Positions 6,353 through 46,091 of a stretch of DNA of 64,000 nucleotides are shown in pieces. A model generated the notes under the pieces. It was not told the DNA's origin, did no database searches, and saw only the letters and a list, made by a program, of their open reading frames with translations. A program made the position numbers and the translations under genes. Origin of the DNA: a bacterium (GTDB lineage: Bacteria; JAGOBX01); NCBI GenBank assembly GCA_036733285.1, contig DAINAU010000001.1, positions 18,954-82,953 on the forward strand, given 5' to 3'. Position 1 is the first letter of the stretch, and the number at the start of each line of letters is the position of its first letter.

Positions 6353-7414
6353 TTATTCTTTGCTTGCTACAATAAAAAAATCTTTAGGCAAAGGAATTTG
6401 TAATTTCTTATTAATGACTTTCCCTTCAAATCTTGGAAAACGATCAAAAAACTTTTCTCCTGTTGTCAAATACATATTTGTCAATTTCACAGTATTATTA
6501 TTTATTTCAGCATAAAACACTAAATATCGGACATCGGAATGTCTTATTACAATATCATTTACGGCTGGAATTGGCAGCGGCGCGCGACTTGATGGAGCAA
6601 CAAGACCTAAATCAATTGTTGGCGACGACTGTAATTTCACTTCAATTAATTGATGTAATATATCAGGAAATCGCCCTGTATCTGAATAATCCTTATATCC
6701 CAAAGCACGACAAACTAATTTATATAAAACATCGCCCCGCGTACGTTCTCGCTCTTTTCCTGTATCTTCAAAACTTGTTCCAATTAAAGTTTTCATTTTT
6801 TCAAAAAGAAATGTTATAGGAATAATTTTGTTTATATCGGGAATCTCAGTTGGTTTATTATTTGTTAAATCTAAAATGATCAAAGTATTATGTACCAAAG
6901 TTAAAATATTATCAGTATCACTATTGGTAATTAATTCAGATTGTAAATCAGAGGCGCGGATTGTCGCTTGATATTTTTGTGTCAATGTTCCAGTCGTGTC
7001 AAGCTTGGCTAAAATATCGCCGGTTACTACTTTAACGCTCTCTATGATATTTTTCGATGACACTTTCATAATTACATATCTGCGGTTTACTGCAATATCT
7101 TCATTCCAAATTTGTAAATTATTAGATTTTTGAATATAGGTATCAAAATCTTGTCCAATAAATCGCGGATGAGTTTTTTTAAAAGTTTTTGGCAATGGAT
7201 ACCCTAATGTTTCACAAATTTTTTCTTTAACAACTTTCGATCGTGTTCTTAACGGCAAATCATTCAGGGATAAATTTTTTAATGTCCGATTTAAAATATA
7301 TTCTAATTGTTCAGATGCGTACCAACACTCAAAATGTCCATTTCTTATTTTATCGTAAATGGACAATTTATGTTTGTGAATGTTTTCTTTTACTTTTTCA
7401 ATTTCTTTTTCAAT
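6353..7414 (-). CDS. Putative Type II restriction endonuclease with a PD-(D/E)xK fold.
   Basis: The ORF-track frame 6353..7498 has a 5' extension that overlaps the upstream gene. The likely start is the internal ATG at 7414 (MDIEKEIEK...), which is preceded by AGAGGA. The motif GRFPDILHQLIEVKLQ matches PD...E-x-K. The gene lies immediately downstream of a methyltransferase gene. Confidence 0.5.
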   Translation of the reverse strand: MEKEIEKVKENIHKHKLSIYDKIRNGHFECWYASEQLEYILNRTLKNLSLNDLPLRTRSKVVKEKICETLGYPLPKTFKKTHPRFIGQDFDTYIQKSNNLQIWNEDIAVNRRYVIMKVSSKNIIESVKVVTGDILAKLDTTGTLTQKYQATIRASDLQSELITNSDTDNILTLVHNTLIILDLTNNKPTEIPDINKIIPITFLFEKMKTLIGTSFEDTGKERERTRGDVLYKLVCRALGYKDYSDTGRFPDILHQLIEVKLQSSPTIDLGLVAPSSRAPLPIPAVNDIVIRHSDVRYLVFYAEINNNTVKLTNMYLTTGEKFFDRFPRFEGKVINKKLQIPLPKDFFIVASKE

Positions 7415-7433
7415 ATCCATAATAGTCCTCTCG

Positions 7434-8420
7434 CTAAATACCATATACTTTGTATGCCAAAGCATTAATACGATTTTCAGTTTTGATTTTGTCGGCATTA
7501 TTATTAATTAACTCTTTTACTAATTTGATTATTTCTTTACATTCATTTTTACTTATATCGGGCAACGGATATTTTGCTACATATTGTGTAAAATATCGCC
7601 TTCTGCCTGAATATAATTTATTATTAAAACATAAGTCATGAAATTTTGTTAAAACTTCAGAATTCGACAAACCTAAAATTAAAAATAATAAATTTTCATC
7701 ATATTTATCATTGATAGTAATCCAATAACAATTCCCGTCAACAATAGAATTATTATTATCGAAAAAAAATTTTGGTTCGGGACTTATATCAGGAAAAATA
7801 ATTTTGGGTTCTTTCCAAGCATTAGGATTTTGAGGCACCCATATTTCATACCATTGCCGATTAGCTTGTATCAAATACGTTCTTTCTTCAAGTTTTTCTC
7901 GATACTGTTCTAAATATTTTTTTGCCTTTGGAAAATTTGATAATTCAATTGGCGTTCTTTTTCCGTTTTTATTGATATGAGTATATAATACATAACGTTT
8001 ATTCAATTTATTGGATTTACTTAACCACTTATTAGATTCATAACTTGACAAAATCGGTTTTAATAATTCCCTTTCGGGTCTAATTTCAGGCGGCAATTCA
8101 TCCCAATCATTTCTTATAAATACCGTATCTGCATTTGTCTTAATTCCTACTCTGACTTTTGCAACATCTGCAATTGTTTTGTTTGAATTATTTGTTATGG
8201 TTTCAATAAAATCATTTTCATTTTTTGTAACCAATTTCCAAGGTTCTTTGGATTTTGTTGATATATGAAAATGACCTGAATTAGCAACGTATATTGTTTG
8301 TCCAACTTGAAAACAACCTGTTTTTTCATTATGAATTATATCATAAATAGTATTTTCTTTTTCATATTTGGTAATGTTATTATCGCTATTTTTTTCATAT
8401 ATTCTATAAAAACGGGGCAT
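7434..8420 (-). CDS. C-terminal target-recognition part (TaqI_C-like TRD) of an N6-adenine DNA methyltransferase. It is encoded as a separate ORF from the catalytic part.
   Basis: The 328-aa product has TRD-like segments (VRVGIKTNADTVFI, GNCYWI) typical of M.TaqI/Eco57I-family C-terminal domains and no MTase catalytic motifs. It is 23 bp from the stop of the catalytic-domain ORF. The frame is restored by a 1-nt change in the A10 tract. Confidence 0.5.
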   Translation of the reverse strand: MPRFYRIYEKNSDNNITKYEKENTIYDIIHNEKTGCFQVGQTIYVANSGHFHISTKSKEPWKLVTKNENDFIETITNNSNKTIADVAKVRVGIKTNADTVFIRNDWDELPPEIRPERELLKPILSSYESNKWLSKSNKLNKRYVLYTHINKNGKRTPIELSNFPKAKKYLEQYREKLEERTYLIQANRQWYEIWVPQNPNAWKEPKIIFPDISPEPKFFFDNNNSIVDGNCYWITINDKYDENLLFLILGLSNSEVLTKFHDLCFNNKLYSGRRRYFTQYVAKYPLPDISKNECKEIIKLVKELINNNADKIKTENRINALAYKVYGI

Positions 8421-8443
8421 CTGTTTATCTTGTGTTTTATTTT

Positions 8444-9163
8444 TTAATATTTTTTTTTTCGGCCAAAAAAAATTGCCGGCAAAACTGCCGCTTCAAATAA
8501 TTTTGTATCGCCTAAATCAATAAGTTTAATAATTTCATAATTTGATTGCAAATAATTGCGTATGTTTTCACCGGCTCTGTTTGATATAAAACGATTAGAT
8601 GTGATAACACCGAGTAAACCATCATCTGATAAAATAGAAGTCATTGCAACTAAAAAAGCATGATACAAATCGACCCGGCCGGCAAGGTTAAATTTTTTAG
8701 ACAATTTCTGCGCTTTTTCAGAACCTAAAATTTGAGTTCTTACATATGGAGGATTTGCAATTATAACATCAATTTTATTTAAAATATCTAAATCAGAAGT
8801 TGTTTCTAAATCAAATAAACACGGCTGATTTTTTAATTTCCATTCGGGAATCATCTCCAAAAAATCAGCCGTGTTTAAATATAATTCTTTCAATTTAAAT
8901 TGTTTTAGCCGTTCGTTTGTTTTTTTTAGCGAATCTAAATCAAATTCAATTCCATAAATAGAAATATTTTTGTGAAATTTAACCGGAATATTATTTATAA
9001 ATGCAAGCAGTAATTCGCCATCGCCGCAAGAAGGGTCAAGAACATTTATTGTTTTATTACTATTTAATTCAATTTGATTTATAAGATTAATTGCAACATA
9101 ATTTGCTAATTGATTGGGAGTGAAATGAGCGCCTGACGTTTTTTGAGCAGAATATTTTTTCAT
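8444..9163 (-). CDS. Gamma-class N6-adenine DNA methyltransferase, catalytic domain (239 aa).
   Basis: GAHFTP (motif X), VLDPSCGDGELLL (motif I, AdoMet binding) and IIANPPYV (motif IV). The product ends ...AAVLPAIFFGRKKKY immediately before the A10 tract. Confidence 0.8.
   Translation of the reverse strand: MKKYSAQKTSGAHFTPNQLANYVAINLINQIELNSNKTINVLDPSCGDGELLLAFINNIPVKFHKNISIYGIEFDLDSLKKTNERLKQFKLKELYLNTADFLEMIPEWKLKNQPCLFDLETTSDLDILNKIDVIIANPPYVRTQILGSEKAQKLSKKFNLAGRVDLYHAFLVAMTSILSDDGLLGVITSNRFISNRAGENIRNYLQSNYEIIKLIDLGDTKLFEAAVLPAIFFGRKKKY
8450..8459. repeat. Homopolymeric T10 tract (A10 on the coding strand) at the junction of the two methyltransferase ORFs.
   Basis: Plus-strand positions 8450-8459 are ten consecutive T. 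They encode the KKK of the ...FFGRKKKY* C-terminus of the catalytic ORF. Confidence 0.9.
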
Positions 9164-11225: not shown

Positions 11226-11692
11226 AATGCGTTATTGTTGGATTCAGTTTTTTCAAAAGCCTGAATTACTCCGGTTTCTTCCTGCAGTAAAAACTTGATT
11301 TTAGCTATGATTTTTCCTTTTTCAAGAAGCAGGTCGTTATATTCTTTTTTTAATTCTCCGACTCTTTTTTCAGCCTCTTTTATCATAACGTTGCACTGAA
11401 GCTTGGTTTCCGTAAGGAATTGTTCGGCGTCTTTTTTTGCCGACTCCTGAACCGATTGTTTAAAATCCCTTATTATCATTAAAGTGTCCTGAAGTTTATT
11501 TTCCATATCCCTGTAATCCCGTTGAACCTTCTGCAATTCGGCGATTTTATCTTTAAACTGGGAATTTTCTTTTATTATTCCGGCAATATCCTGAGAAATT
11601 TCATTGAGAAATCCGCGAACCTGTTTTTTATCGTATCCGAACAAAGAATTTTTAAATTCAATTTTTTCAATTTCAATCGGCGTAATTTTCAT
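11222..11692 (-). CDS. DivIVA-domain cell-division protein.
   Basis: Sequence from the internal start MKITPIEIEKIEFKNSLFGYDKKQV (DivIVA N-terminal signature) followed by a coiled coil. The ATG at 11692 overlaps the thiE stop as ATGA. The longer ORF-track frame 11222..11779 overlaps thiE and I reject it. Confidence 0.7.
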   Translation of the reverse strand: MKITPIEIEKIEFKNSLFGYDKKQVRGFLNEISQDIAGIIKENSQFKDKIAELQKVQRDYRDMENKLQDTLMIIRDFKQSVQESAKKDAEQFLTETKLQCNVMIKEAEKRVGELKKEYNDLLLEKGKIIAKIKFLLQEETGVIQAFEKTESNNNAL

Positions 11693-12333
11693 TTGAAGTC
11701 TCCAATAATTTTTTTTAAGGTTTTCACAGAACAGGAAATATTCTCCGAACACACTATATCCGACACAACGGCGAAACAATCTACGTTTAATCCCGCAAAC
11801 AATCCTATGTTCTTTGAATTTATTCCTCCGATAGCCGCCGTGAATTTTTTTTTGAACTTGAGTATTTCCGGAATCTTTTCTATTGAAACGACCGGAGCCG
11901 GATTTTCTTTAGTGGACGTCGCGAACACCGGACCTATCGCCGTATAATCGGCGCATCCGTTCTGTCCTTCGATATACTGACTTTCATTATGCGTCGATAA
12001 TCCGATTATTTTATCCTCGCCAAGAAGTTCGCGGCAGAGTTTCGCGTCAAGATCGTCCTGTCCAATATGAACGCCGTCGGCTCCGGAAAATTTCGCTATC
12101 GCAGGGTCGTCGTTGACTATGAATAATTTTCCGTATTTCAAAGTCAATTTTTTTATTTCCAGCGCAAGCGAATATTTTTCTTTGTCGCTCATATTCTTTT
12201 CGCGAAGCTGTATAATGTCGATTCCCGCTTTCAATTGCATTTCCACCACATCGAGAATTTTCCTGTTTTTCAAATATTTATCCGGCGTGAATCCGTATAA
12301 TTTGCTCGTTAATAATTGTTGCCTTGCGTTCAT
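11689..12333 (-). CDS. thiE: Thiamine-phosphate synthase.
   Basis: The 214-aa product has GADGVHIGQDD, GLSTH and AIGGI motifs typical of ThiE. Confidence 0.85.
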   Translation of the reverse strand: MNARQQLLTSKLYGFTPDKYLKNRKILDVVEMQLKAGIDIIQLREKNMSDKEKYSLALEIKKLTLKYGKLFIVNDDPAIAKFSGADGVHIGQDDLDAKLCRELLGEDKIIGLSTHNESQYIEGQNGCADYTAIGPVFATSTKENPAPVVSIEKIPEILKFKKKFTAAIGGINSKNIGLFAGLNVDCFAVVSDIVCSENISCSVKTLKKIIGDFK

Positions 12334-12335
12334 AT

Positions 12336-14114
12336 TTAAATAAATTCAGAAATCCTGTTTCTTCCATTTTCTTTTGACTGATACAAAGCTACGTCCGCGT
12401 TTTTAATTAGTTGAACCTGCGTCAATCCTTGTTTATACTCGGCTAAACCAAGACTAACCGTTACTCGCAAGGGTTTATCTTGCCCCGGAAATTCGTATTC
12501 CTGAACGTTCGCTCTTATTCTCTCAGCCACGGCTTTGGCTCCTTTTATATCCGTAAGCGGAAGTATTACGGCAAATTCTTCGCCTCCGTATCTTGCGACT
12601 ATATCCGAACGCCTGTCGCTTAACCGAAAATCGATTATTCTCGTTGAATTATGAAGTATTTTAGCAAGATGCTGTAAAACAATATCTCCTTGTTGATGTC
12701 CGTATTGGTCGTTAAACGTTTTGAAATGATCAATATCCAGCATTATTAAACATAATTTGCCGTTATTATTTTTATGATACTCTATTTCTTCCGCGAGTTT
12801 TTGCTGAAAATATCTGTGTATATATATTTTCGTCAATCCGTCGGTTATCGCAAGTTCGTATAAATTTGAATTTTCAATGGCTATCGCTGCGGATGAAGCC
12901 AGCGTTTGATATAATATTATTTCCGAAGAAGAATATTTGGAATCTCCCTCTTTGCCGGCTAAACATATAACGCCGGTCAGCTTGTCTTTTACAACCAGCG
13001 GAAGCGCGAGCATCTGTTTGTTTTCAATCTGAGTCAGTTCGTTAGGTTTGTAAAAAAGCAGATACTCGGGATATTCAGTAATGTTTTCCACGATTTTATA
13101 ATTGCATGATACTGCCGCCGCTCCAGCCGCGCCTTCCCCGAATTTGATGTTATATTTGACTGTGTTCAAATTATATCCTGACGCTAATTCAAGCGAATGT
13201 TTATCGTCGCTTGCAAGCAATAAAGCGCATTTCCCGCATTTCGCGTTTGTCGTATAAATCTTTATTATGTTTTGCAGCAAATCTTTTTTATTTAATTCCG
13301 AACTTATTTCCATTCCAAGTATCTGAATTGTCTGTAAATCTTTTATTCGTTCCTGAAGATTTTGCGTCATCAAATTAAACGCGTCGACTAAAACTCCGAC
13401 CTCATTGTTCACCTTGATGCTTATTATCTCCGGAGTCGTTTCTCCTTTTGAAATTTTATCCGCGGCTCCTATTAGTTTCTGAATTGGATTGACCACGTAG
13501 TTCACAGCGTAAGAAATAGCGAACAAAGAAATTATTATCAAAATTACCGCGAGTAAAATTGTGAAAAATACGCTCGACAGAACAATCTTGTTGAAATATT
13601 TGTTTGAAAATCCCATCTGCATATAGCCCGACAAAACAGTTTTATCCGCAAGGCGGTGTTTTACGTTCACGGTTTTTATCGTAAGTCCTCTGTGTGTTAT
13701 TATTTTTCCGTAAACAGACATATTTCTTATAACGTCTGGCTTTAAAACCGGCGGTTTGATTTTTGAACCCGAAAAATTTGCGAACCTTAAAATTTCAGAC
13801 GTCGACGAATTATAAAAAATTATATGATGTATGTAGTTGTCGTTTTTAAACATATTTTTGATATTTTGTGATAATTCATTTATCAATTTGTCTTCAAGAA
13901 TTCCGGTTTGATAATAATTTTTAAAAAGCTCGGATGAATAATTGGTTATAATCGACAAATCTTTCGTTATCAGCATATTCTTATAATTTTCGGCGTTTTT
14001 ATGGATTTGAACTATAATATAGCCGGAAGTTATTATCAGCGATAATGTATATACAAATATAAACGAAAAATTTATTATGAATTTTATACTTTGATATTTC
14101 ACTTTTAGTTTCAT
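12336..14114 (-). CDS. Membrane sensor diguanylate cyclase (HAMP-GAF-GGDEF).
   Basis: N-terminal TM segment, periplasmic region, second TM segment, HAMP, GAF-like region, then a C-terminal GGDEF domain (RYGGEEFAVILP). Confidence 0.8.
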   Translation of the reverse strand: MKLKVKYQSIKFIINFSFIFVYTLSLIITSGYIIVQIHKNAENYKNMLITKDLSIITNYSSELFKNYYQTGILEDKLINELSQNIKNMFKNDNYIHHIIFYNSSTSEILRFANFSGSKIKPPVLKPDVIRNMSVYGKIITHRGLTIKTVNVKHRLADKTVLSGYMQMGFSNKYFNKIVLSSVFFTILLAVILIIISLFAISYAVNYVVNPIQKLIGAADKISKGETTPEIISIKVNNEVGVLVDAFNLMTQNLQERIKDLQTIQILGMEISSELNKKDLLQNIIKIYTTNAKCGKCALLLASDDKHSLELASGYNLNTVKYNIKFGEGAAGAAAVSCNYKIVENITEYPEYLLFYKPNELTQIENKQMLALPLVVKDKLTGVICLAGKEGDSKYSSSEIILYQTLASSAAIAIENSNLYELAITDGLTKIYIHRYFQQKLAEEIEYHKNNNGKLCLIMLDIDHFKTFNDQYGHQQGDIVLQHLAKILHNSTRIIDFRLSDRRSDIVARYGGEEFAVILPLTDIKGAKAVAERIRANVQEYEFPGQDKPLRVTVSLGLAEYKQGLTQVQLIKNADVALYQSKENGRNRISEFI

Positions 14115-16342
14115 TTGCTCGTAGCGCTTTCAATATATTTTTTCTGACTGAACTTATAATTGAATCCGTCTATTTCTGTAATAACTACTTTTATCAAATC
14201 TCCTATCTTTACTAATTCTTCGGGTTTGGTGCGGCATCCGTTTCCGAGTTCCGATAAATATACAGGACCTTTCGCGCCGAATTCCGATTCCACAAAAATT
14301 CCGAAAGGCACAAGTTTTACAACCGTCGCCTCTACAATATCCCCGATTTTATAATCGCTTTGTTCAGACGGTTGTTTTGAATCTTTTTTCAATCTCGAAA
14401 ACATACTTTTGATTTTCCCTTCGACTTTTTCCGTTTCGTATCTTTCCGCTTTGGTTGAAATCTCAAGTATTCTTGTTTTTGCGGATTCTATGTTGCTGAA
14501 TTTATTCTTTGAACTTATTACTATTACTCCATCGTCTTCAATTACTATATCGCATGATGTGTTTTTCTTGATTTCATTTATATTGACAAAATTTTTTCCG
14601 GCAATTAATCCTATTTTATTCGGATTAACCTGCAATATCCTTGTCTCCGGAATTTTGGGATTTAAATTCGGATTTGGTTCCGGAAAAAATTCTTTTATTT
14701 TATTTATAACAAATGAAAGCGACTCGGTTTGCCTGTCAAGAATAGTTTCAAGCTGATTTACGGTTAATCCCCTTTTCCTCGATTTAAAAAGAATTCCGAT
14801 TATCCCTTTTGCGCTCGCCGTAATATTTATCTCCGCGTCGGCGCATACTCTCTCAAGCATTAAAGAATCGGTTAAAGAAAAAAAATCGTTTGATTTTCGA
14901 GAATAATATAACGCGCTGTCAACGCTTGCAAATTCTGATTTCGCCTTTATCCCCGCGTCTTTTAAAGCGAGATTGGCGCTGTTGACCGCCGCGGAAATCG
15001 TCCCTCCGTCAGTTGATATGATTTCATAGATTATTCTCTTTAAATATGGAAGTTCAGATAATCCGGGAATGATGTTTTTTAAAACGTTGTCGAGATAAAT
15101 ATTTATCGCGTCTTCAAATCTGTTGAATTTTATGGAGGAATCTATTTTTCCAACGCTGAACGGATATACGTAGACATTGTTTAAAAAAGTTTGACGCTTA
15201 TATCCGTCTATTCCAAACAACCATCTTGATTTATTGACGGTTCCAAGCGTAACTACTCCCATTACCTTTGTTTTGCCGAACCTGAAAATTCCGGAGCCAT
15301 GAGCCGACGGCAGCATTCCAGCCGAGCATTCTATTTCTCTGAATTCGTTAAATTGCCGCTTGTCAAGTCTTATGTGTTTCTCAATCAGATTTTCTTTTAT
15401 ATATTCGCCTATCGCCTCATAAAAATACTTTTTTAATATATAAGGCGATACCGTTCCTATCGCGTTTTTTACAGAAATAGTTTTATACAAATCGTCTTTT
15501 AATTCATTAATTTTTAATTCGGATTTTCCATCTGAATTCAATAAATTCTCGATTTCATTCTTGTTGTTTTCGTTAAACGCCGCTATTATCTCCGAATTAA
15601 AATCAGAGTATTCGATTTTTTGCTGCGGTTTTGTTATATCTTCAAGATTTTTCCAGAGTTCTATTGCTTTCTTCTGGAAATCTATTAATGGCTCAATCGT
15701 TGATTTTAAATAACCTACGGCTCCAATTATATAAGTCGGCGAAGCGTCTTTTACAGAACAAAACATATTTATTATCAATTCTTTTGATGACGCTATCAGC
15801 AAATCGAGATTGCTGAACTGTATAATGTCCATATCCGGATTTTTAATATATCTTCCCTCGACTTCTCCAAGTCTTAATGCCGCAAAGCTATCCGAATTGA
15901 AACAGGATAAAAATGAAATCAATAAAGACAATCCTATCGATGCGGGAAGTTCCGGCGAGCATCCTTCTTCGTAAGACGTCAGAAGAATGGAAATAATTAT
16001 TTCGTTGTCTATCGCCTTATTCAAAGATGTTATTGCGCACTCGGTAAAAAAATCCGTAAGTTGAATTTCGCGAGGCGTTCTCGATTCTTCTCTTTTATGA
16101 AAATTTGACGGAATCTCTCCAAAAGAATAAAAACGCTCGGAATAAAAAAGTTTTATCGGCGAATTTATGTATTCCCCGGCGTCTAATAATCTGCGCCCTA
16201 TTATCAGATTGCAATTAACAAGGGTTTTTCCATACGATGCCTCTATGATGTAATCTGACGTTCCATTATAATCGACTAATCTTGCTTTCAACGGCTTTCC
16301 GTCGTATATTGTTTCGAATATTCTATCGTTTTTACTTTTCAT
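14111..16342 (-). CDS. pnp: Polyribonucleotide nucleotidyltransferase (PNPase), highly divergent.
   Basis: The first PH domain has FYSFGEIPSNFHKREESRTPREI (compare ...AAGRIPGSFFRREGRPSE). The second PH domain has RLDKRQFNEFREIECSAGMLPSAHGSGIFRFGKTKVMGVVTLG. KH and S1 domains follow (GDIVEATVVKLVPFGIFVE). Confidence 0.75.
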   Translation of the reverse strand: MKSKNDRIFETIYDGKPLKARLVDYNGTSDYIIEASYGKTLVNCNLIIGRRLLDAGEYINSPIKLFYSERFYSFGEIPSNFHKREESRTPREIQLTDFFTECAITSLNKAIDNEIIISILLTSYEEGCSPELPASIGLSLLISFLSCFNSDSFAALRLGEVEGRYIKNPDMDIIQFSNLDLLIASSKELIINMFCSVKDASPTYIIGAVGYLKSTIEPLIDFQKKAIELWKNLEDITKPQQKIEYSDFNSEIIAAFNENNKNEIENLLNSDGKSELKINELKDDLYKTISVKNAIGTVSPYILKKYFYEAIGEYIKENLIEKHIRLDKRQFNEFREIECSAGMLPSAHGSGIFRFGKTKVMGVVTLGTVNKSRWLFGIDGYKRQTFLNNVYVYPFSVGKIDSSIKFNRFEDAINIYLDNVLKNIIPGLSELPYLKRIIYEIISTDGGTISAAVNSANLALKDAGIKAKSEFASVDSALYYSRKSNDFFSLTDSLMLERVCADAEINITASAKGIIGILFKSRKRGLTVNQLETILDRQTESLSFVINKIKEFFPEPNPNLNPKIPETRILQVNPNKIGLIAGKNFVNINEIKKNTSCDIVIEDDGVIVISSKNKFSNIESAKTRILEISTKAERYETEKVEGKIKSMFSRLKKDSKQPSEQSDYKIGDIVEATVVKLVPFGIFVESEFGAKGPVYLSELGNGCRTKPEELVKIGDLIKVVITEIDGFNYKFSQKKYIESATSK

Positions 16343-16346
16343 AATT

Positions 16347-18107
16347 TTAAAACCTGACGCTGAAGTTTAAATTATTTCTATTCTTGTTAACGCCGGATAT
16401 TAATGTCCTTAAAAAATTTTTTAAAATGGTTTTGCATTCTTTTATTGCTTTAATTAATTTGCCTGTTTCTACGCCCTGACAGTTTGATATGATATTCAGA
16501 TATTTTATATTGCGTTCGTCTCCGATTATGCATATCCGCAAATCCGCCGCCGCTTCTTCTATGAACACGGGCTCCAATATTAAATAATTCTGTTCTATCA
16601 AATATGCGAATTCAAGACATCCGGCATCCTCGTAAAACACGTTGTTAAAAGTCTCTTCAGGATGAAAATATTTCAAAATATTTATCGCGTTGATCGGAAC
16701 GCTTATTTCCGAACCGTCGCTCGATATGTATTCGGTTACCATTCTATGCGCGCTGTTTTGTTCCAATAATTTATTAAAATTTATTATCTTGTTCAACGCG
16801 GTTTCAATCTGACCTGACCTTAACGGCTTGTATTCGTCGGATAAAATTCTGTCTCCAAGAAGAACATTAATGTTGTTTCCAAAAAAATTCGATATATTGT
16901 AAAATTTAGATTCGCTTCTGAAATCAACGTCGTCATTAATCTTTACAAATTTTTCTATCTTATTTTTTGTTCTTTTTACCTGTTGTCCTTCTTCCGAATT
17001 TTCTTCTTTTTGTCGTAATGATGTTACTGAAACAATTGCGTCCGTAACTTTCCTGTTAATTCTGCAAACCGACGTATTCTTGTTTTTCGTTATTTCAATC
17101 TCAATATCTGTTATTTTATTGGCGTAATCGTCGTATAACCGCTTTTTCTGATTAAGATTTTCTTTCACAATATTTAATAAAATCCGGTAAAAACTATAAA
17201 AATAATAGTTCTTAAATTCATCGAAGTTTTTAATATTAATGTCGGTTGACAATTCGGCATTTTTTAACAGTATCGAAGAAAGCTTGGTTAATTCTTCGAT
17301 TCTTGTTTTATAAGAATCGTAAACATATATCCCTTCAATTAACTCTTTGTTTGCAAGAATTATATTTTCGATTGAACGCTTAATATCAAAATCCGCGTCT
17401 TCCGATAAAACGCCGTTCAATTTCAAATCTATTCCGGATTCATTTTTCAAATCTTTTAAAAATTCGAAATATCCGGATTGCCCAGTTTCTATTATTCGTT
17501 TGATATTTTCAATTTGATATTCGCTGAATTCTCTTCCGGACGCTTCCAGAAAAATTAATTTCTCTGAAGTCCAGCTTATTAAAACGGAAAATTTGGATCT
17601 GTTTATTTCTTTAAATCCCGGTTCTATCTGAATTCCGGATTGACCGGAGCAAAATCTCCCCGTATAATATGGAAAATCAATTATTCCCGAAATATAACTT
17701 AGTATCATTGCGCAGTTCATAGCGAGCGAGTCGGAAGGATAACCGGAATTGCCGGATTCCAGAAGCAGATTTAATTCTATGTCCATATTGAATTTGTTCA
17801 GTTTTAACAGCGGTGAAATCTGACGCGTTATTTTTTTTTCTATTATTGAATTCTTTTGCGAATGAACGTTTTCTTCAAGATTTGACGACCCCGGCAATTG
17901 ACCGGCCGCCGAATGCCGTTCAATATACTTTATTATTATTTTGGAATCCCTTAAATTTTTTATTTTGCCGGCGTTCAAAAAACCGAATATCACCGCGTTA
18001 TTTGATTTTAATTTTATTCCAAATAGCGAGGTAATATTATCTAAAATTTCTATTTCCAATCCGTCTTTAAATAATATTGCGTCTGTAAATTTTTTTTTTA
18101 TTTTCAT
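16347..18107 (-). CDS. PNPase-like paralogue with two degenerate RNase PH-like domains and no KH or S1 domains.
   Basis: The 586-aa product has IKYIERHSAAGQLPGSSNLEEN, which aligns to the PNPase motif YAAGRIPGGFFRREG. DSLAMNCAMILSYISGI and SKFSVLISWTSEKLIFLEASGREFSE align to the PNPase first PH domain. The C-terminus lacks an S1 domain. Confidence 0.5.
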   Translation of the reverse strand: MKIKKKFTDAILFKDGLEIEILDNITSLFGIKLKSNNAVIFGFLNAGKIKNLRDSKIIIKYIERHSAAGQLPGSSNLEENVHSQKNSIIEKKITRQISPLLKLNKFNMDIELNLLLESGNSGYPSDSLAMNCAMILSYISGIIDFPYYTGRFCSGQSGIQIEPGFKEINRSKFSVLISWTSEKLIFLEASGREFSEYQIENIKRIIETGQSGYFEFLKDLKNESGIDLKLNGVLSEDADFDIKRSIENIILANKELIEGIYVYDSYKTRIEELTKLSSILLKNAELSTDINIKNFDEFKNYYFYSFYRILLNIVKENLNQKKRLYDDYANKITDIEIEITKNKNTSVCRINRKVTDAIVSVTSLRQKEENSEEGQQVKRTKNKIEKFVKINDDVDFRSESKFYNISNFFGNNINVLLGDRILSDEYKPLRSGQIETALNKIINFNKLLEQNSAHRMVTEYISSDGSEISVPINAINILKYFHPEETFNNVFYEDAGCLEFAYLIEQNYLILEPVFIEEAAADLRICIIGDERNIKYLNIISNCQGVETGKLIKAIKECKTILKNFLRTLISGVNKNRNNLNFSVRF

Positions 18108-20195
18108 TTATGATTTATACACAAACCTCTTATCAACCGGCAATTCCACCGAAAATTTCACTCCGTTTTTTTCGTTTTTAAAATTAATTTTCCCGTTATG
18201 TTCTTCCATTATTTTTTGAGAGATTGTCAGACCAAGCCCGATTCCAGTGGATTTTGTCGTAAAAAAAGGATTGAAAATCTTGCTCTTTAAAGTCTCGTCG
18301 ATGTTTCCGCCGTTATTGAAAATTTCCACTATGCAAACCGTGTATTCGTTAGCCGTAAGATTATTGTCCTTAATCCTGACGTTTATTTCTATAAACGGAT
18401 CGCTTATTTCTTTCAAAGCGTCAACCGCGTTTAATAAAATATTTAAAAATACCCTGTTCAATTTATCCTCGTCGTAATTAACCAAAATTTTGTGCGCGCA
18501 ATATTTTCTTTCTAACTTAATGTTGTTGTCTTCCATTGATTTTCGAACGTATAACAGAGATTTTTCCAGCGTTTCAATTAAATTTTTGTTCTGTTTTTTT
18601 AATTGTATTTTATTAGTAAAATTCAAAAATTCCGTGACTATCTTATTTAAATCGTTAACTCCCTCGACTATTTTCGAGGCAATCTTGCTTTTTTCGGAAT
18701 CCGCCGAATCTGATAAATCTTTTTCAAGCAGAGACGCAAATCCCTCTATTGAACCGAGCGGATTGCGTATCTCGTGAGCGAGTCCGGCCGCCATTTCTCC
18801 TAACGAAGCGAGTTTGTCCCTGCGGTTCAATTCTTCTTCCATCTCCTTCATTTCAGTTATATCGTTGAATGACGCTATCATTCCTTTAATCAAACCGTAT
18901 TCGGTCTTAAGTTTTACAGTCGTCAATTCTATTTGCTTCACTTCAAGATTTTTTGCCACAAGCTGCGTCCTGTGATAAAACATATATTCTTCATTTTCTA
19001 TTTTTGTCTGTATCTGTTTATCGGGAAAAATATATATGTCCTGTCCGAGAGTTTTATCTAATAATTCGTTTTCATTATCGAATTTTAATAAAAGCAGAGC
19101 TTGCGTGTTTATGAATTTAATCTTTAATTCTTTGTCGAGAATCATAATTCCCAGCGGCAAATTTTTGAAAGTAAAATATAAATAATCTTTTATGCTTTCT
19201 ATTCTTTTATATAACGCCCTGTTTTTAAAAAGCAATTCAAGATATACTTTTACCGTTTTTATCAATTCGACGTCGCTAACGTTAAATGAATTTTTTTCAT
19301 AAAGTTTTGTCAAATAAATTATTAAATAACGTTCGTTTTCTATATGAACGTTTACCTTTAAAATATTCCTGATTTTTTTTAAATCCGCCGTTGATACCGC
19401 TTTATCCTTCGGACCAAACAATTCCGGTTCCTGAGATACTCTTATTATCCCTTTATTCAGCGCCGGAATATCTAAATCCTTTTCGTATTTATCGATTATT
19501 TCTCCCGTCATATTATCGTATACTATTCCGGCTCCGGCGTTGCAATTCATAATCTTAACTATTGAATTTGTCGTTACTTTTAATATTGATACAAGTTCGT
19601 AATCGAGTTTTAAACTATTTTTTATTTCATTTAATGTTACTATTTTTGACATCCTCTCGTATGCTCTTTGTTCCGCTTTCCTGTTTTCTTCGCTTGAAAA
19701 ACCGAGCATTATCGCGATTATCAATAAAGCTATAAATCTCGGCAGATGAGCTTGAACCTGCGGTCCGAATAAAATCACGTTTCTGGTTACCGGGTCAGGA
19801 CTTAAGTTATAAAGAATAAATATGAAAAGCGTGGTGCCGACGCTTCCGCGTATCCCGAAACTCATTGCTCCAGATATAATAGGTATGAAATATAAAAAGA
19901 AAAACGAAATGCTGTTATCGCCGGAATAGGTAACAGTAAAATGAACAAAAAAAACATAAATTTCAAGCAATAAAAGATTCGCTTTCGCGGATGGCAAAAT
20001 CGTTTTTAAAAACGGATCTATTATAAAAAATAAAAGCGCTATGATTAAAAACAAATAAAAATATTGAGTCGATAATCCGGTAAAAAAATTTAAAATTATA
20101 TAGAGAAGTATTACCGTCGCAAAAAGCGATATAAATAAAAATAAACCGCTTACTTCGCGGTTTTTCTTTAATATCCATTCTAAATATTTTTTCAT
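18108..20195 (-). CDS. Polytopic membrane sensor histidine kinase (PAS-HisKA-HATPase_c).
   Basis: Multiple N-terminal TM helices, a PAS-like region, an H-box (HEIRNPLGSIEGF), and N and G boxes (NAVDAL, GIGLGL). Confidence 0.8.
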   Translation of the reverse strand: MKKYLEWILKKNREVSGLFLFISLFATVILLYIILNFFTGLSTQYFYLFLIIALLFFIIDPFLKTILPSAKANLLLLEIYVFFVHFTVTYSGDNSISFFFLYFIPIISGAMSFGIRGSVGTTLFIFILYNLSPDPVTRNVILFGPQVQAHLPRFIALLIIAIMLGFSSEENRKAEQRAYERMSKIVTLNEIKNSLKLDYELVSILKVTTNSIVKIMNCNAGAGIVYDNMTGEIIDKYEKDLDIPALNKGIIRVSQEPELFGPKDKAVSTADLKKIRNILKVNVHIENERYLIIYLTKLYEKNSFNVSDVELIKTVKVYLELLFKNRALYKRIESIKDYLYFTFKNLPLGIMILDKELKIKFINTQALLLLKFDNENELLDKTLGQDIYIFPDKQIQTKIENEEYMFYHRTQLVAKNLEVKQIELTTVKLKTEYGLIKGMIASFNDITEMKEMEEELNRRDKLASLGEMAAGLAHEIRNPLGSIEGFASLLEKDLSDSADSEKSKIASKIVEGVNDLNKIVTEFLNFTNKIQLKKQNKNLIETLEKSLLYVRKSMEDNNIKLERKYCAHKILVNYDEDKLNRVFLNILLNAVDALKEISDPFIEINVRIKDNNLTANEYTVCIVEIFNNGGNIDETLKSKIFNPFFTTKSTGIGLGLTISQKIMEEHNGKINFKNEKNGVKFSVELPVDKRFVYKS

Positions 20196-21127
20196 TTGAA
20201 ATGTTTGTTAATCAAATCGATTTTCTCGCGCATTATATTATAATCGGAATCCTCCGCCGGGGCGTAACCTTCAAGTCCGCCCGCAAGCGAATTCAAAATA
20301 TTAGAGTTTTTCAAATTAATAAATGCGTCAAGCAATTTTTTTTTCAAATCCTTATTGTCTATAATATTTTTCCCTATCGCTATCGGGTCGCCGGGAATAT
20401 CGTCCGTTTCCTGTAATACCACTATATTTTTGACTTTATCGGGCGATAAATATTTTTCTACCGCGCCTTGATAACAAGCTCCTATTTCCGCGCCTTTCGA
20501 TGATATTATTTTCACAACGTTATCGTGTCCCTTTACAAATTTTACGCTTAAATTTTTTTCAATATCCGCCCCTGATTTGATTATGTCCGCAGCCGGAAAT
20601 AAAAAACCCGACGTCGAATATCTGTCCGTAAAAACCGTTTTAATTTTCTCTCTCTTCTTCAAATCCTCCAGTGATTTTATTCCAGAATCTTTATGCGTGA
20701 TTATTATTCCCTTATAAGAAGGTTTCCCGTTTCGTATTGATTTAACCAGCGGAAGCGTGTTGTTTTTTTTATGCGATTCCACGTATGAATAAGCCCCCAT
20801 TGACGCCAAATCATATTCGATTCCGGTTTTATCAACTATATTTTCGTAATTCGACGCAAATTTTAATATCACCGGCATTTCAATCTGAGCGTGAAGATAA
20901 CTGATTAATGGTTTCATTATGTTTTGTAAATCCATTGCGTTGCTCGAAGGAACAACGGCAAAATTAAGTTTCTGAATCCCCGTGTCGCTTTCAATTTGCT
21001 CCGTTGATTTTTTCGATGCGCCTACTGCGTCTGTTACGTTGTTATCGCCAACATTTCCCGAACAACCCCAAAAAAACAACATAGACAAAATTAACATATT
21101 TTTTTTTATATTTGATATGCCGGACAT
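20192..21127 (-). CDS. Lipoprotein of the PhnD/SsuA-like phosphonate/phosphate-binding family (periplasmic substrate-binding domain).
   Basis: Lipobox ...FFWGCSG. The TVFTDRYSTSGFLFP segment resembles the PhnD binding family. The stop overlaps the histidine-kinase start by 4 bp. Confidence 0.55.
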   Translation of the reverse strand: MSGISNIKKNMLILSMLFFWGCSGNVGDNNVTDAVGASKKSTEQIESDTGIQKLNFAVVPSSNAMDLQNIMKPLISYLHAQIEMPVILKFASNYENIVDKTGIEYDLASMGAYSYVESHKKNNTLPLVKSIRNGKPSYKGIIITHKDSGIKSLEDLKKREKIKTVFTDRYSTSGFLFPAADIIKSGADIEKNLSVKFVKGHDNVVKIISSKGAEIGACYQGAVEKYLSPDKVKNIVVLQETDDIPGDPIAIGKNIIDNKDLKKKLLDAFINLKNSNILNSLAGGLEGYAPAEDSDYNIMREKIDLINKHFK

Positions 21128-21665: not shown

Positions 21666-22004
21666 GCTTTCGCGGTTACAGATTATTAAAACTTTTTGTT
21701 TTTAAGCTCTCGGAAATTGTTTCAATAATTTTAATTTATTAGAACAATTTCTGACTGCGTCCCCGCGACTTGTTTTTGTCGTCTGAATTTGATTGACTTC
21801 TTGCCTTAATTAATATAACTTTTTATCAATTAGCTTTTATAAAAAATATATTAACAGTTTAATTTGATTATAATTAATCCCGAATAATTCATTAGAGGCA
21901 GCGAGAAGTTTCTTAAAAATTAAAATGTTATATTGCGATTGAAATTCGCAATTTATATGAAAACTTCAATTGCATTTTTTAGATTAATACAACAGGAAAA
22001 AAAT

Positions 22005-24227
22005 ATGAATACTAACAAACTAAAACCTTATATTAAATTCGACGATGATAAAAAAAATATTTTTTATATCGCGCAAAATAAAAAATACCGGTATGCCGAC
22101 CCTGAAGAACAAATACGAAGCAAGGCGTATCTTGAATTAATCAATTACGGTTACGAGCCGAAACGCATTGATTTTGAAGTCGGTATTCCGCATAGAACTC
22201 CGAATATACTTGCGGATATTGTCGTTTATAACGATGATGATTTGAAAGACCCGCATATTGTCGTTGAATGTAAAAAACCGGAAGTATCCGAAGGCGAATT
22301 CAAGCAGGCGGTTGAACAGGGATTCGGAAACGCAAATTCGCTCAAAGCAAATTATCTTTGGATTACTTCGGGAATCAAAAACGAATATTTTAACGTAAAA
22401 GATTTTCCGTCAATGGAACGCGATGCAAACCGTTTATCGGATATCCCGCGTTTTGGTCAAAAAAAAATCGATAAAGCGCAGTTTTACAAAGGCGGAATAA
22501 ACGATAAAAGCGAACAGCGTAAAGATTTAACGACTTTAAACGAAAACGAATTAACCCGAATTTTTAAGCAGGCGCACGATGCGCTTTGGGCTGGCGGCAA
22601 ACGCAATCCTTCGGAAGCGTTCGACGAATTCGATAAACTTATTTTTTGTAAAATTTGGGATGAAAAAAAATTGCGTAAAAACGGAGAACCCTACGATTTT
22701 CAGGTTTTTAGCGGCGAGAAAAACGAACTGCTTTTGAAACGCATTCAAACAATTTACGACAAAGGCAAGGAAAGGGACCCTGAAGTTTTTAAAGATAATA
22801 TCCGGCTGAATCCATACGAACTTGAAACAGTAGTAAGTTATCTTGCCGGAATAAATTTAAGCGATACCGACCTTGACAGCAAAGGCAGGGCGTTTGAAAC
22901 ATTTATGGGAAGTTTTTTCCGCGGCGATTTTGGCGCTTTTTTTACGCCGCGTCCTATTGTAAAGTTTATTATTGAAAGTTTGCCGGTAACTAACGAAGAT
23001 ATTGTTTTGGATCCGTCCTGCGGCAGCGGCGGCTTTTTGCTATACGCGCTTGATAAAGTCCGGCGCGCCGCTGATAAAATGTCTGATGACGGCTATTTTA
23101 AAAAAGACAGCTCTAAACACTATAATTTTTGGCATAATTTTGCCGAATCAAATTTATTTGGAATTGAAATTTCCGAAAGCATTGCCCGCACCGCTAAAAT
23201 GAATATGATAATTCACGACGACGGACATACAAATGTCGTATCGCACGATGGACTTGACAGTATTTACTGGATGCGCGAAAAAACAAAAAATAAGGGTTTT
23301 GCGAAAAATAAATTTGATTATATTATCACAAATCCGCCTTTTGGTTCGTCGATTCAGTCGTCGGCTAAAGCGTATGTTAAAGAATACGATTTGGGCAAAA
23401 AAAATTATGAATGGATAGAGTTAAAATTAAAAAATAAAAATCCGAATAAAGACGAAGTTCGGGAGAGGCAAAGCTCTGAAGTTTTGTTTATCGAGCAGTG
23501 CTATAATTTTCTTAAACCGGGCGGAATACTCGCAATGGTAATACCCGACGGCATTTTGACAAATTCAAGTTTACAGTATGTCCGCGGCTGGATTGAAGAG
23601 CATTACAGGATTATTGCGGTTGTGTCAATGCCCCAGTCAGCTTTTCAGGCGACTGGCGCGGGCGTTAAAAGCTCGGTTATTTTTCTTGAAAAATATGAAG
23701 AATCCGAGACCGCGGCTATCCAAAAAATAAAAATTGAATTGCAGGATAAACTATTTGAAAACAAAAAATACGGTCCCTCGATTGAAAAAATTGAACGCGA
23801 AAAAAAAGATACGCTGAAAAATAATTTTGCGAAAATTAAAGAAATTAACGAATCGCTTGATAATCATTTAAAAGCCCTTGAAAATCAAGGAAATATTGAT
23901 AAATCTAAAAAATGCGGACTCGAAAAAAATGCAAAAGATAAAATCAAACAAATTGAAAAATCTGAAGAATACGCCGATTGGCGATGCCGCATTACAGACG
24001 AATTCAACGAGCGGATAAACGCTATTAAAGAAAATCTTCAGGAAGAATTTATCGAATCCGTGAAAAAGAAAATTACGGATTATCCTGTGTTTATGGCGAT
24101 TGCGGAAGACATCGGCTATGACGCGGCAGGCAGACCGACAAATAAAAACGAACTCGAAGATATTGCTAAAGAACTTTTAGCTTTTATCGAATCTGTAAAA
24201 AAAGGAACTGATTCTTTTTTCGCATAA
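22005..24227 (+). CDS. Fused restriction endonuclease and N6-adenine DNA methyltransferase (HsdR_N/Mrr-like PD-(D/E)xK domain plus gamma-class MTase plus coiled-coil C-terminal extension). BcgI-A-like Type IIB/IIG R-M subunit.
   Basis: The likely start is the ATG at 22005 (AGGAAA upstream); the ORF-track frame begins at 21933. The N-terminus has ADIVVYNDD...HIVVECKKP (D...E-x-K). The MTase motif I is LDPSCGSGGFLLYA and motif IV is IITNPPFGSS. An approximately 170-aa Lys/Glu-rich helical tail follows. Confidence 0.7.
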   Translation: MNTNKLKPYIKFDDDKKNIFYIAQNKKYRYADPEEQIRSKAYLELINYGYEPKRIDFEVGIPHRTPNILADIVVYNDDDLKDPHIVVECKKPEVSEGEFKQAVEQGFGNANSLKANYLWITSGIKNEYFNVKDFPSMERDANRLSDIPRFGQKKIDKAQFYKGGINDKSEQRKDLTTLNENELTRIFKQAHDALWAGGKRNPSEAFDEFDKLIFCKIWDEKKLRKNGEPYDFQVFSGEKNELLLKRIQTIYDKGKERDPEVFKDNIRLNPYELETVVSYLAGINLSDTDLDSKGRAFETFMGSFFRGDFGAFFTPRPIVKFIIESLPVTNEDIVLDPSCGSGGFLLYALDKVRRAADKMSDDGYFKKDSSKHYNFWHNFAESNLFGIEISESIARTAKMNMIIHDDGHTNVVSHDGLDSIYWMREKTKNKGFAKNKFDYIITNPPFGSSIQSSAKAYVKEYDLGKKNYEWIELKLKNKNPNKDEVRERQSSEVLFIEQCYNFLKPGGILAMVIPDGILTNSSLQYVRGWIEEHYRIIAVVSMPQSAFQATGAGVKSSVIFLEKYEESETAAIQKIKIELQDKLFENKKYGPSIEKIEREKKDTLKNNFAKIKEINESLDNHLKALENQGNIDKSKKCGLEKNAKDKIKQIEKSEEYADWRCRITDEFNERINAIKENLQEEFIESVKKKITDYPVFMAIAEDIGYDAAGRPTNKNELEDIAKELLAFIESVKKGTDSFFA

Positions 24228-24274
24228 GCTCCGGGGCAGATAAAAATAAGATTTTTACCGCGAACCGGAGCGAA

Positions 24275-25654
24275 ATGAAAGATAGGTTTGATCCGCTGTT
24301 TTATTCCGGCTGGCTTCTTGGTTTTTTTAAAAAATTAAAATTTAAGACTGTCAAGTTAAAAGACTTGACATTGTATCTTAAAAATGGATTTGCGGCTGGA
24401 CATAATGATCAGTCTTTTAACGAAAACGATATTATTCAGATAAGACCAACTAACATTAATTCCGACAATATGCTTGTATTTGATAAAAATATTTATATCA
24501 GCCGTAAAACTTTAAATTTAAAAAAATCTGATGTTTTGATTAAAAATGAAATTTTATTTAATAATACAAACAGTCAAGAATTAGTTGGAAAAACTTCTTT
24601 TTTTGATTTTGATAGTATTAATTTTTGTTCAAATCATATTACGAGGATAATGTGCGGCAATAAAATATTGCCCAAATATCTTTGGATAATTTTAAATTTT
24701 TATCAAAAAAATAAAATATTTTTCAATCTATGCACTAACTGGAATAATCAATCCGGCGTTAATATTAATGTCCTTGCGAATCTTCTTATACCTTTACCGG
24801 AAAAAAACACGCAAGAAAAAATCATATCCATATTTGAGAAATCTATTATCAATAAACAATCCAAAGAATCAAAAGCCCAAAAAATGCTCGATGGAATTGA
24901 CGATTATCTTCTTTCTGAATTGGGAATAAAACTTCCTAAAGAAAAACCAAATATTTTAAAAAACCGTATTTTTAAAACAAGCGTTAAAAATATTTCTGGC
25001 GGCAGGTTCGATCCTATTTATAACGATATATATTACTTAAAATTTGAAGAAAGTATCAAACAATCAAAATATAAATTGAAAAAAATTTTTGAATTATGTT
25101 ATGGGAAATCAGGAGTTGTTTATTCGGTCAACGATGAAGCGAAAGATGGAAAAGGAATATTACGCGCAAATAACATTGATTTATCAACTAATGAACTAAA
25201 TTTGTCAGATATAAAATTTATTTCAAACAATATATTTATTAGCTCTGATTTATTATTAAAAAAAAATGATATTTTGATGTGTTCGGCAAGCGGTAGTAAA
25301 GAACATGTTGGAAAGGTAGCTTATATTTGCGAGGATTTGAATCTATATTTTGGCGGATTTATGATGGTTTTACGCGGAAAAACAAGTATGTTGTTATCTA
25401 AATATTTGTTTGAATTTTTACGGAGCCTTTTTTTTAGAAAATATTTATTTCGTCAATTAGGCGGAACAAATATTAATAATTTAAATTTTCATATGATTTC
25501 CAACTTATTCATTCCCCTGCCTCCAATAGATGTTCAAAATAAAATAGCTGAAGCGATAAAAAAAATACGCGAAGAAGCGAAACGCCTGCGATTTGAGGCG
25601 TCGTCGGAATTAGAAAATGCAAAAAAAGAAATAGAGCGAATGCTTTTAAAATAG
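24275..25654 (+). CDS. hsdS: Restriction-modification specificity (S) subunit with two target-recognition domains.
   Basis: The 459-aa product has an N-terminal RFDPLFY motif, two TRD-like halves separated by a conserved central helix, and a C-terminal conserved helix (IAEAIKKIREEAKRL). Confidence 0.8.
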   Translation: MKDRFDPLFYSGWLLGFFKKLKFKTVKLKDLTLYLKNGFAAGHNDQSFNENDIIQIRPTNINSDNMLVFDKNIYISRKTLNLKKSDVLIKNEILFNNTNSQELVGKTSFFDFDSINFCSNHITRIMCGNKILPKYLWIILNFYQKNKIFFNLCTNWNNQSGVNINVLANLLIPLPEKNTQEKIISIFEKSIINKQSKESKAQKMLDGIDDYLLSELGIKLPKEKPNILKNRIFKTSVKNISGGRFDPIYNDIYYLKFEESIKQSKYKLKKIFELCYGKSGVVYSVNDEAKDGKGILRANNIDLSTNELNLSDIKFISNNIFISSDLLLKKNDILMCSASGSKEHVGKVAYICEDLNLYFGGFMMVLRGKTSMLLSKYLFEFLRSLFFRKYLFRQLGGTNINNLNFHMISNLFIPLPPIDVQNKIAEAIKKIREEAKRLRFEASSELENAKKEIERMLLK

Positions 25655-34306: not shown

Positions 34307-34316
34307 AAGGACACCT

Positions 34317-45057: not shown

Positions 45058-45284
45058 TTTATAAACAAACCTATTTTAGATAAAACCGCATTGATTCCGG
45101 TTTTGTTTTCATAAAGGAAAGATTTAAAAAAAGTCGAATAAAAAATAATTGAACTTGAAATAATAATAATTTGTAATATAATCAACGCTAATATTTTTAA
45201 ATTTTTCATTTAGTTCAATTATACTTTTATTTTAATAAAATTCAATTTGTTTATTTTATGTTTTATTAGGGAGACGATTTTGTT

Positions 45285-46052: not shown

Positions 46053-46091
46053 CCGTATTTCAATCTAATATCAGCGGTCAGTCTAATAATT

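Follow-up and report, generated by a model that had tools for sequence, protein, structure and literature searches.

We analyzed a tandem pair of genes for diverged homologues of polynucleotide phosphorylase (PNPase) in a 64,000-nucleotide (nt) stretch of bacterial DNA (GenBank assembly GCA_036733285.1, contig DAINAU010000001.1, positions 18,954 to 82,953 of the forward strand), here called the window, in whose own numbering coordinates are given. The two proteins, of 586 and 743 amino acids (aa), are referred to as A586 and B743, and their families as A and B. Judged from the aligned catalytic residues, they are predicted to be a pair of pseudo-PNPases, neither of which is a working PNPase; since both have lost the phosphorolytic centre, this would not be a pseudo-enzyme standing beside its enzyme. 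The genes follow a sensor histidine kinase gene and precede a diguanylate cyclase gene in a predicted operon, an embedding that is the strongest contextual clue on the pair. We consider it somewhat probable that A586 and B743 build a non-catalytic PNPase-like ring assembly that binds RNA or a ligand and carries the output of a signalling module made up of the kinase and the cyclase. PNPase is regarded as a near-universal, single-copy and catalytically active bacterial ribonuclease (RNase). A full-text search of open-access papers turned up neither bacterial PNPase pseudo-enzymes nor tandem PNPase paralogues.

The tandem pair of open reading frames (ORFs) reported by a first-pass annotation of the window is real, and the two are separated by a gap of 4 nt.

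16347..18107, minus strand: A586, PNPase-core paralogue of 586 aa, with the first RNase PH domain (PH1), the helical domain and the second RNase PH domain (PH2), without KH or S1 domain, and with a degenerate catalytic centre
14111..16342, minus strand: B743, full-length PNPase-like protein of 743 aa, with PH1, helical domain, PH2, KH and S1, and with a degenerate catalytic centre

The peptides quoted in that annotation were located at residues 66-80 of A586 (SAAGQLPGSSNLEEN) and at residues 73-92 (SFGEIPSNFHKREESRTPRE) and 344-351 (LPSAHGSG) of B743. It had named a spurious motif match as the finding that would undo the RNase PH homology of A586; the profile searches (hhalign and NCBIfam) instead confirmed the relationship, and, together with the PDB matches, they make both proteins PNPase homologues beyond chance. 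At NCBI, the pair carries the labels 'hypothetical' and 'S1 RNA-binding domain-containing protein', the latter being the annotation of B743.

A586 gave no Pfam match at all. It matched the NCBIfam PNPase equivalogs TIGR03591 and NF008805 over residues 58-377 (E 4e-15; 54.4 and 55.3 bits) and PDB PNPases at E 7e-5 as a single sequence and at E 4.6e-11 as a family profile. When a three-sequence A profile was compared with 14 canonical PNPases by hhalign, the probability was 99.5% (E 3.6e-22, 483 columns), and residues 30-560 of A586 were collinear with PNPase residues 32-533, which comprise PH1, the helical domain and PH2. An AlphaFold2 model of A586, built on an alignment of A, B and canonical PNPases, reached a pLDDT of 81 and a pTM of 0.84, against a pLDDT of 33 without alignment. 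The top 50 PDB matches of this model in Foldseek were all PNPases (TM score 0.76-0.83, E down to 2.5e-32), the alignment behind the model having contained PNPases. By hhalign and Foldseek, the RNase PH fold thus occurs twice in the A586 chain. The earlier restriction of the second PH domain to B743 held at the level of Pfam and failed beyond it, since the collinear hhalign block includes PH2 and the model superimposes on PNPases. What had been said about the end of the protein was correct: the chain stops approximately 25 residues past PH2, and KH and S1 are absent. A586 is therefore a whole PNPase core that lacks only KH and S1. It also contains a Lys/Glu-rich insertion of approximately 20 residues (365-383; window 17007-16959), which has low pLDDT, is specific to the A family and stands at the place of the beta-ribbon, residues 362-375 of E. 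coli PNPase. This ribbon has been tied to the control of RNA entry (PMC3077632).

B743 was recognized by Pfam in three segments, RNase_PH at residues 333-465 (72 bits, corresponding to PH2), KH_1 at 569-626 (29 bits) and S1 at 665-725 (43.5 bits). Its alignment with the PDB PNPase 5yjj ran from end to end (E 1e-62) and covered PH1, so that the RNase PH fold is present twice here as well, and with it the complete five-domain PNPase architecture (PH1, helical domain, PH2, KH, S1), of which A586 has the core only. B743 matched the NCBIfam equivalogs at E 9e-91, with 305.3 bits against a cut-off of 471 and 300.8 bits against a cut-off of 525; neither B743 nor A586 reaches a curated PNPase equivalog cut-off. 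The first-pass annotation had taken B743 for pnp. Because the catalytic residues are replaced and the scores lie below the family cut-offs, B743 is, on its sequence, not a credible pnp.

The catalytic centre was examined in an alignment of the A and B families (three orthologues each) with 15 canonical PNPases, 14 of them taken from the searches and one being that of E. coli. The latter, of 711 aa, has its landmarks at the published numbers and matches PDB alignments over residues 59-201. In E. coli PNPase, D486, D492 and K494 coordinate the catalytic metal (Mn2+), S438 and S439 bind phosphate, and H403 contacts the transition state; activity is lost in the mutant D492G and drops by a factor of 10 or more in H403A (PMC2723993). 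All 15 canonical PNPases displayed RREIGHG, NGS[ST]S and ED...GD(M)DFK, with D, D and K at positions 486, 492 and 494. The corresponding residues of the two families, by E. coli position, are as follows.

R399: F in the B family; L or K in the A family
H403: I or L in the B family; Y or F in the A family
S437-S439: G/S, T, I/L in the B family; S/C, E, I/V in the A family
D486: R or K in the B family; E in the A family
D492: E, E, L in the B family; R in the A family
K494: N or S in the B family; C in the A family

The results showed that the metal residues D486, D492 and K494 are retained as a set in neither family, and that the RREIGHG and NGSSS motifs are lost, with [RK]FED..N in the B family and I-[LK]-S/P-D-E-Y/F-K in the A family in place of the former. 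The remnants of the PH2 active sites in the two proteins of the window are located as follows.

16530..16847, minus strand: PH2 active-site remnants of A586, with ILSDEYK (421-427) for RREIGHG and S-E-I (466-468) for S437-S439
within 16530..16847, minus strand: A586 residues 518 E, 524 R and 526 C, at D486, D492 and K494
14825..15121, minus strand: PH2 active-site remnants of B743, with RFEDAIN (408-414) for RREIGHG and G-T-I (447-449) for S437-S439
within 14825..15121, minus strand: B743 residues R498, E504 and N506, at D486, D492 and K494

The HMMER alignment of B743 with 5yjj independently gave identical catalytic substitutions. The non-catalytic PH2 residues of B743 are conserved in its orthologues P0004 and that of contig L003, and those of A586 are identical or similarly non-catalytic in the orthologues of contigs L001 and L003; the degeneracy claimed for A586 was thereby borne out in all three A orthologues. 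Among the near-invariant PH2 columns, B743 keeps 25 and A586 12 out of 61; in PH1, the numbers are 8 and 11 out of 22, respectively.

The possibility was considered that B743 is the functional, divergent PNPase of the organism, and that A586, itself catalytically dead, takes part in its ring or regulates it. The five-domain architecture of B743 and its end-to-end alignment with solved PNPases would suit this role, there is no other PNPase gene within the 64-kb window, and E485, D490, a Thr at S438 and an Arg at R398 are kept, with D492E in two orthologues. On the other hand, all three B orthologues have R/K at D486, N/S at K494, I/L at H403, F at R399 and I/L at S439, and one of the three has L at D492, while in E. 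coli the D492G change alone is inactivating and that of H403 severely damaging (PMC2723993). The score of 305 bits against a cut-off of 471, the NCBI name that mentions only an S1 RNA-binding domain, the absence of rpsO from the adjacent positions, and derived pocket residues common to A586, which point to inactivation before duplication, also speak against a working enzyme, and we regard this explanation as very unlikely.

The former active-site loops carry conserved, family-specific motifs, FGNxIN...DEYKPLR in A (kept down to 33% identity) and FEDx[IL]NI[YF] in B. One or both proteins could be neo-functionalised enzymes that use the remodelled pocket for another chemistry, candidates being metal-independent catalysis with Arg/Lys in place of the metal, or the formation or breakdown of a nucleotide signal connected with the adjacent cyclase. 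That these loops are among the best conserved segments of each family, that a basic residue replaces the metal ligand D486 in every B orthologue, that E485 and D490 persist, and that both genes are under purifying selection and adjoin a nucleotide cyclase gene would all agree with such a role; a Streptomyces PNPase was, moreover, once described as a guanosine pentaphosphate synthetase (cf. database molecule names). The conserved motifs fit ligand-binding or structural roles equally well, however, no specific chemistry is indicated, and we know of no RNase PH-fold enzyme that works without the acidic pair. We therefore hold new enzymatic functions to be unlikely.

The features that could serve RNA binding are distributed unequally between the two proteins. 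The FFRR loop of PNPase PH1 is the RNA-channel loop (PMC2723993).

17874..17885, minus strand: FFRR-equivalent of A586, residues 75-78 (S-N-L-E), channel loop lost
16091..16102, minus strand: FFRR-equivalent of B743, residues 81-84 (F-H-K-R), partly retained
14465..14638, minus strand: KH domain of B743, in which A-G-K-N (residues 581-584) aligns with the canonical G-x-G-G
14168..14350, minus strand: S1 domain of B743, with the aromatic RNA-binding residues kept (PFGIF) and Y for H650

At the FFRR position, the B family has FHKR or FYKR (FYKR in L003) and so keeps the aromatic and basic character, and the A family has SNLE, ANLE or YNLQ.

A direct BLASTP comparison of A586 and B743 was insignificant (E 0.066), and their kinship was visible only at the profile level and in shared derived residues. 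By hhalign, the A and B profiles matched with 96% probability (E 2e-9) over 509 collinear columns. Canonical cores are conserved to at least 80% in 67 columns at which A586 and B743 both deviate from the consensus, and in 19 of these the two have an identical derived residue; shuffling gave an expectation of 5.5 ± 2.2, and none of 10,000 shuffles reached 19. The non-conservative shared changes were A24N, Q26T, D96T, I401D, S439I, M440S, C444N and R530L, four of which (I401D, S439I, M440S and C444N) lie in active-site loops or the pocket. Among the other shared changes are several conservative ones that may have arisen by convergence, given the low GC content of the genome, and long-branch effects may add to a signal that is based on residue counts. 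Since derived residues are shared in the former active site, the inactivation would have preceded the duplication, which suggests that A586 and B743 are sister paralogues from an already inactive ancestor. A tandem duplication of such a PNPase-derived ancestor probably gave rise to A and B; A would later have shed KH, S1 and the RNA-channel loop, and B would have kept the FFRR-like loop and an S1 domain with aromatic RNA-binding residues.

The two genes lie within a packed series of six minus-strand ORFs, the junctions of which are gaps of 0-4 nt or overlaps of 4 nt. The remaining features of this series are as follows.

20192..21127, minus strand: PhnD-family periplasmic binding protein, first gene of the operon, overlapping the kinase gene by 4 nt
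18108..20195, minus strand: membrane sensor histidine kinase with PAS, HisKA and HATPase_c domains, the stop codon of which abuts the ATG of A586
12336..14114, minus strand: HAMP-GAF-GGDEF diguanylate cyclase with a GGEEF motif and an RxxD site, overlapping the end of B743 by 4 nt
11689..12333, minus strand: thiamine-phosphate synthase gene (ThiE), 2 nt downstream of the cyclase gene and co-linear in L001
21156..21184, minus strand: best sigma-70-like promoter match of the region, TTGACA, a 17-nt spacer and TG-GATAAT, 11 of 12 positions, a consensus match only

The order is thus binding protein, histidine kinase, A586, B743 and diguanylate cyclase, followed by thiamine-phosphate synthase, and the sole promoter-like site of the operon sits upstream of its first gene, that of the binding protein. 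From this arrangement, A586 and B743 are predicted to be co-transcribed, and the junctions of 0-4 nt suggest that they are probably also translationally coupled. A586 is encoded directly after the kinase; none of the six operon proteins contains a receiver (REC) domain, so a classical two-component arrangement, with a REC protein beside the kinase, was not found. Neither a canonical pnp nor rpsO was found within the 64-kb window, and no Rfam family reached its gathering score anywhere in the window, nor was a riboswitch or other RNA element found near the operon.

Homologues of the pair were few. An exhaustive search of 1.84 billion representatives returned approximately four A-family clusters, followed by canonical PNPases at E 1e-6 or weaker, and a word-indexed homologue search with A586 found only A586 itself and a chimeric fragment. 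The search with B yielded one relative of 71% identity and then canonical PNPases at 25%. When the GTDB representative set was scanned with the A alignment, the sole related genome was GCA_017999075.1 (labelled Ca. Dependentiae; contig L001). The scan of JGI metagenomes with the A alignment found nothing, and that with the B alignment found 36 loci, 23-27% identical to B743, with no new B members among them: 32 of the 36 cover PH2 with NGS[ST]S (27 also with RRE[IV]GHG), and the other 4 are too short for PH2. The A/B family is very rare and limited to a few uncultured low-GC lineages.

Its setting recurs: where the contigs show enough sequence, A and B are linked to each other and to a diguanylate cyclase. 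L001 has the binding protein, the kinase (82% identity), A (60%), B (71-72%), the cyclase and ThiE in the same order, and L003 has the kinase, A (P0018, 33% identity) and B (40-55% identity). The question whether relatives keep both copies in tandem, which the earlier annotation had raised, can thus be answered in the affirmative for L001 and L003. Further A fragments stand directly after a kinase (P0019 on L043, P0020 on L044-L046), and altogether, in each of the five lineages in which A was detected, the gene immediately before A encodes an orthologous kinase, with a kinase identity of 56-66% over the visible parts and 82% in L001.

In the comparison of the window with L001, the nonsynonymous rate (dN) was 0.28 for A and 0.20 for B, with the synonymous rate (dS) saturated; the flanking genes had a dN of 0.11-0.25. 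Since the ORFs are intact and dN is low against a saturated dS, A and B are maintained by purifying selection. An explanation of the pair as pseudogenes was rejected on the same grounds, the reading frames having stayed open at identities of 33-71%. Two sequences among the relatives depart from this picture. On L003, at positions 3020-3045, a frameshift in an A7 run (GATAAAGAAAAAAATAATTAA) divides the B orthologue in two. The probable cause is faulty assembly or sequencing, the run being a homopolymer in a metagenome contig of low coverage; the alternatives are a real pseudogene or a slippage site. P0002 (L002), of 397 aa, joins an unrelated membrane-protein-like N-terminus of approximately 68 aa to the C-terminal 330 aa of an L001-type A and is probably an assembly chimera (1.4-kb contig, coverage approximately 2).

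These data also bear on the possibility that the two proteins have no joint function and are duplication relics that act independently, the kinase adjacency being a historical accident; B could then simply bind RNA as an S1-type protein, and A could be a scaffold that is unrelated or in decay. A has evolved more rapidly than B (identities of 33-60% and 40-71%, respectively), the A gene is cut to PH1 in L043, and the L003 frameshift interrupts B, all of which would be expected of such relics. The kinase that precedes A in five lineages, the order of kinase, A and B retained at 33% A identity, the 0-4 nt junctions with the translational coupling that they suggest, and a dN of A similar to that of neighbouring housekeeping-type genes speak against independence, and the frameshift, located in a homopolymer, is probably due to faulty assembly. 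We therefore consider independent action to be quite unlikely.

Taken together, the loss of the catalytic residues and the constant place after the kinase suggest that the pair is no RNase with a helper but a module without enzymatic activity that serves signalling or RNA binding. In the ring assembly that we favour, A and B would form a PNPase-like ring, either hetero-oligomeric, which is plausible, or as two homotrimers. The ring would bind RNA through B without degrading it. The remodelled, family-conserved former active-site pockets would serve as ligand-binding or regulatory sites, for which cyclic di-GMP (c-di-GMP) is one candidate, and the A/B pair would constitute the output of the kinase and cyclase module.

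Several observations weigh against this interpretation. E485 and D490 persist in both families, two of the three B orthologues have D492E, and B743 has a Thr at the S438 position, like Streptomyces PNPase; with the acidic residues and the Thr kept, residual or altered catalysis may be compatible with the sequence. The GXXG loop of the B743 KH domain is degenerate (AGKN), so that the S1 domain and the channel loop would have to account for most of the RNA binding. The A586 model leans towards the PNPase fold because canonical PNPases were contained in its alignment, the hhalign result being independent of this. Finally, the A gene on L043 (970-1545) ends at 191 aa, comprises PH1 only and is followed by a convergent gene, although it still stands after an orthologous kinase; the full A/B pair is hence not universal. 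The L043 gene may be a PH1-only version or a truncated relic. L043 itself is a very low-GC (23.5%) marine or sediment contig.

Among known systems, bacterial PNPase (TIGR03591/NF008805, EC 2.7.7.8; PDB 3GCM, 5YJJ and 4AM3) is collinear with A and B and shares with both the duplicated RNase PH core and the helical domain; B743 further resembles it in its FFRR-like channel loop and in ending with KH and S1. The pair differs from it in an identity of only approximately 15-25% and scores far below the family cut-offs, in the replaced metal, phosphate and transition-state residues, in being present as two tandem copies, and in its neighbours, which are a kinase and a cyclase instead of rpsO; A586, in addition, lacks KH, S1 and the FFRR loop and has the Lys/Glu-rich insertion. 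There is precedent for a degenerate RNase PH pocket that is kept as a regulatory ligand site, as in E. coli PNPase the vestigial PH1 site takes up citrate as an allosteric ligand (PMC3077632). In that enzyme, PH2 is still catalytic, whereas in A586 and B743 both PH domains would be vestigial.

The core of the eukaryotic exosome is an inactive RNase PH ring. Like A and B, the subunits of exosome Exo9 and of the archaeal Rrp41/Rrp42 rings are diverged RNase PH paralogues, of which some in archaea and all in yeast and human are inactive and serve as RNA channel or scaffold. They are single-PH proteins with separate S1/KH caps, whereas A and B are fused two-PH chains of the PNPase type with an independent origin within bacterial PNPase; no hydrolytic nuclease partner is encoded near A and B. 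Inactive PH sites have been likened to exosome subunits (PMC3077632).

In E. coli, PNPase responds to c-di-GMP and is found in association with a diguanylate cyclase and a phosphodiesterase (PMC8846402). This 'oxydegradosome' (DosC/DgcO, DosP/PdeO and PNPase) resembles the present operon in that a PNPase-type protein is coupled to a sensor diguanylate cyclase, the gene for which here overlaps the end of B743. The E. coli PNPase, however, is active, encoded elsewhere, coupled through RNase E and activated by c-di-GMP, whereas A and B are inactive as judged by their sequences, share an operon with the cyclase and are linked to c-di-GMP by gene adjacency only.

A bolder version of our interpretation, to which we would give only a low probability, is that a fully inactive exosome-like RNase PH ring of two PNPase-derived paralogues, B with an S1 cap and channel loop and A cap-less with a remodelled pocket, receives the signal of the kinase and the diguanylate cyclase directly, as their output in the role of a response regulator, and binds RNA or a nucleotide messenger without degrading RNA. 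If this were true, a bacterial lineage would have arrived independently at the inert-ring principle of Exo9 and tied it to signal transduction. If the pair forms an inert ring, the loss of phosphorolysis with retention of the RNase PH scaffold, a hallmark of the eukaryotic exosome, would also have occurred inside Bacteria. The place after an orthologous kinase and before a diguanylate cyclase suggests a new signalling output that links two-component or c-di-GMP sensing to RNA. Automatic annotation misses the A and B proteins or risks calling B pnp by mistake, and the rarity of the family limits the immediate reach of these considerations.

Restriction-modification genes occur on both sides of the operon. 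At 21933-25654 (plus strand), there is a 764-aa HSDR_N/N6_Mtase fusion with an HsdS-like gene, and at 6353-9163 (minus strand), an Eco57I-type methylase, a TaqI_C specificity protein and a 381-aa ORF without recognized family; L001 has an EPSP synthase gene after the SpoIIE gene, and the 6353-9163 block therefore looks like an insertion. The nearby methylases prompted the idea of anti-phage defence, which was rejected: five operon proteins had no matches to PADLOC-DB defence models at E up to 0.01, and the L001 operon lies in a conserved core context without these methylases. Positions 33326-36454 are probably a horizontally acquired restriction-modification island, with a GC fraction down to 0.23 (34001-36000 bin), Pfam matches to N6_Mtase (34317-35768) and N6_N4_Mtase (35765-36454), and a 326-aa ORF without family (33326-34306).

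Elsewhere in the window, an ORF of more than 2027 aa on the minus strand (3-6083) runs off the window start; with a signal-peptide-like N-terminus, TPR/YfiO-like repeats, and MG2, A2M_BRD and A2M domains, it has the appearance of an alpha-2-macroglobulin-like protein of bacterial type whose TPR front end is unusual. At 40124-41425, 43141-46835 and 50026-51983, there are six ORFs (221-638 aa) to which Pfam assigned no family at E up to 1e-5.

With respect to lineage, the RecA of the window was 93% identical to that of a 'Dependentiae'-labelled metagenome-assembled genome, 82% identical to that of another, and then 66-70% identical to those of many phyla, a range that says nothing on placement. 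The NCBI label 'Candidatus Dependentiae' of the closest genome sits oddly with the gene content, which includes chemotaxis-like genes (MCP, Hpt and kinase; 52011-56791), several sensor kinases, GGDEF, SpoIIE, DivIVA and FapA/Jag_N genes, as well as genes for thiamine, riboflavin, CoA and cobyric acid.

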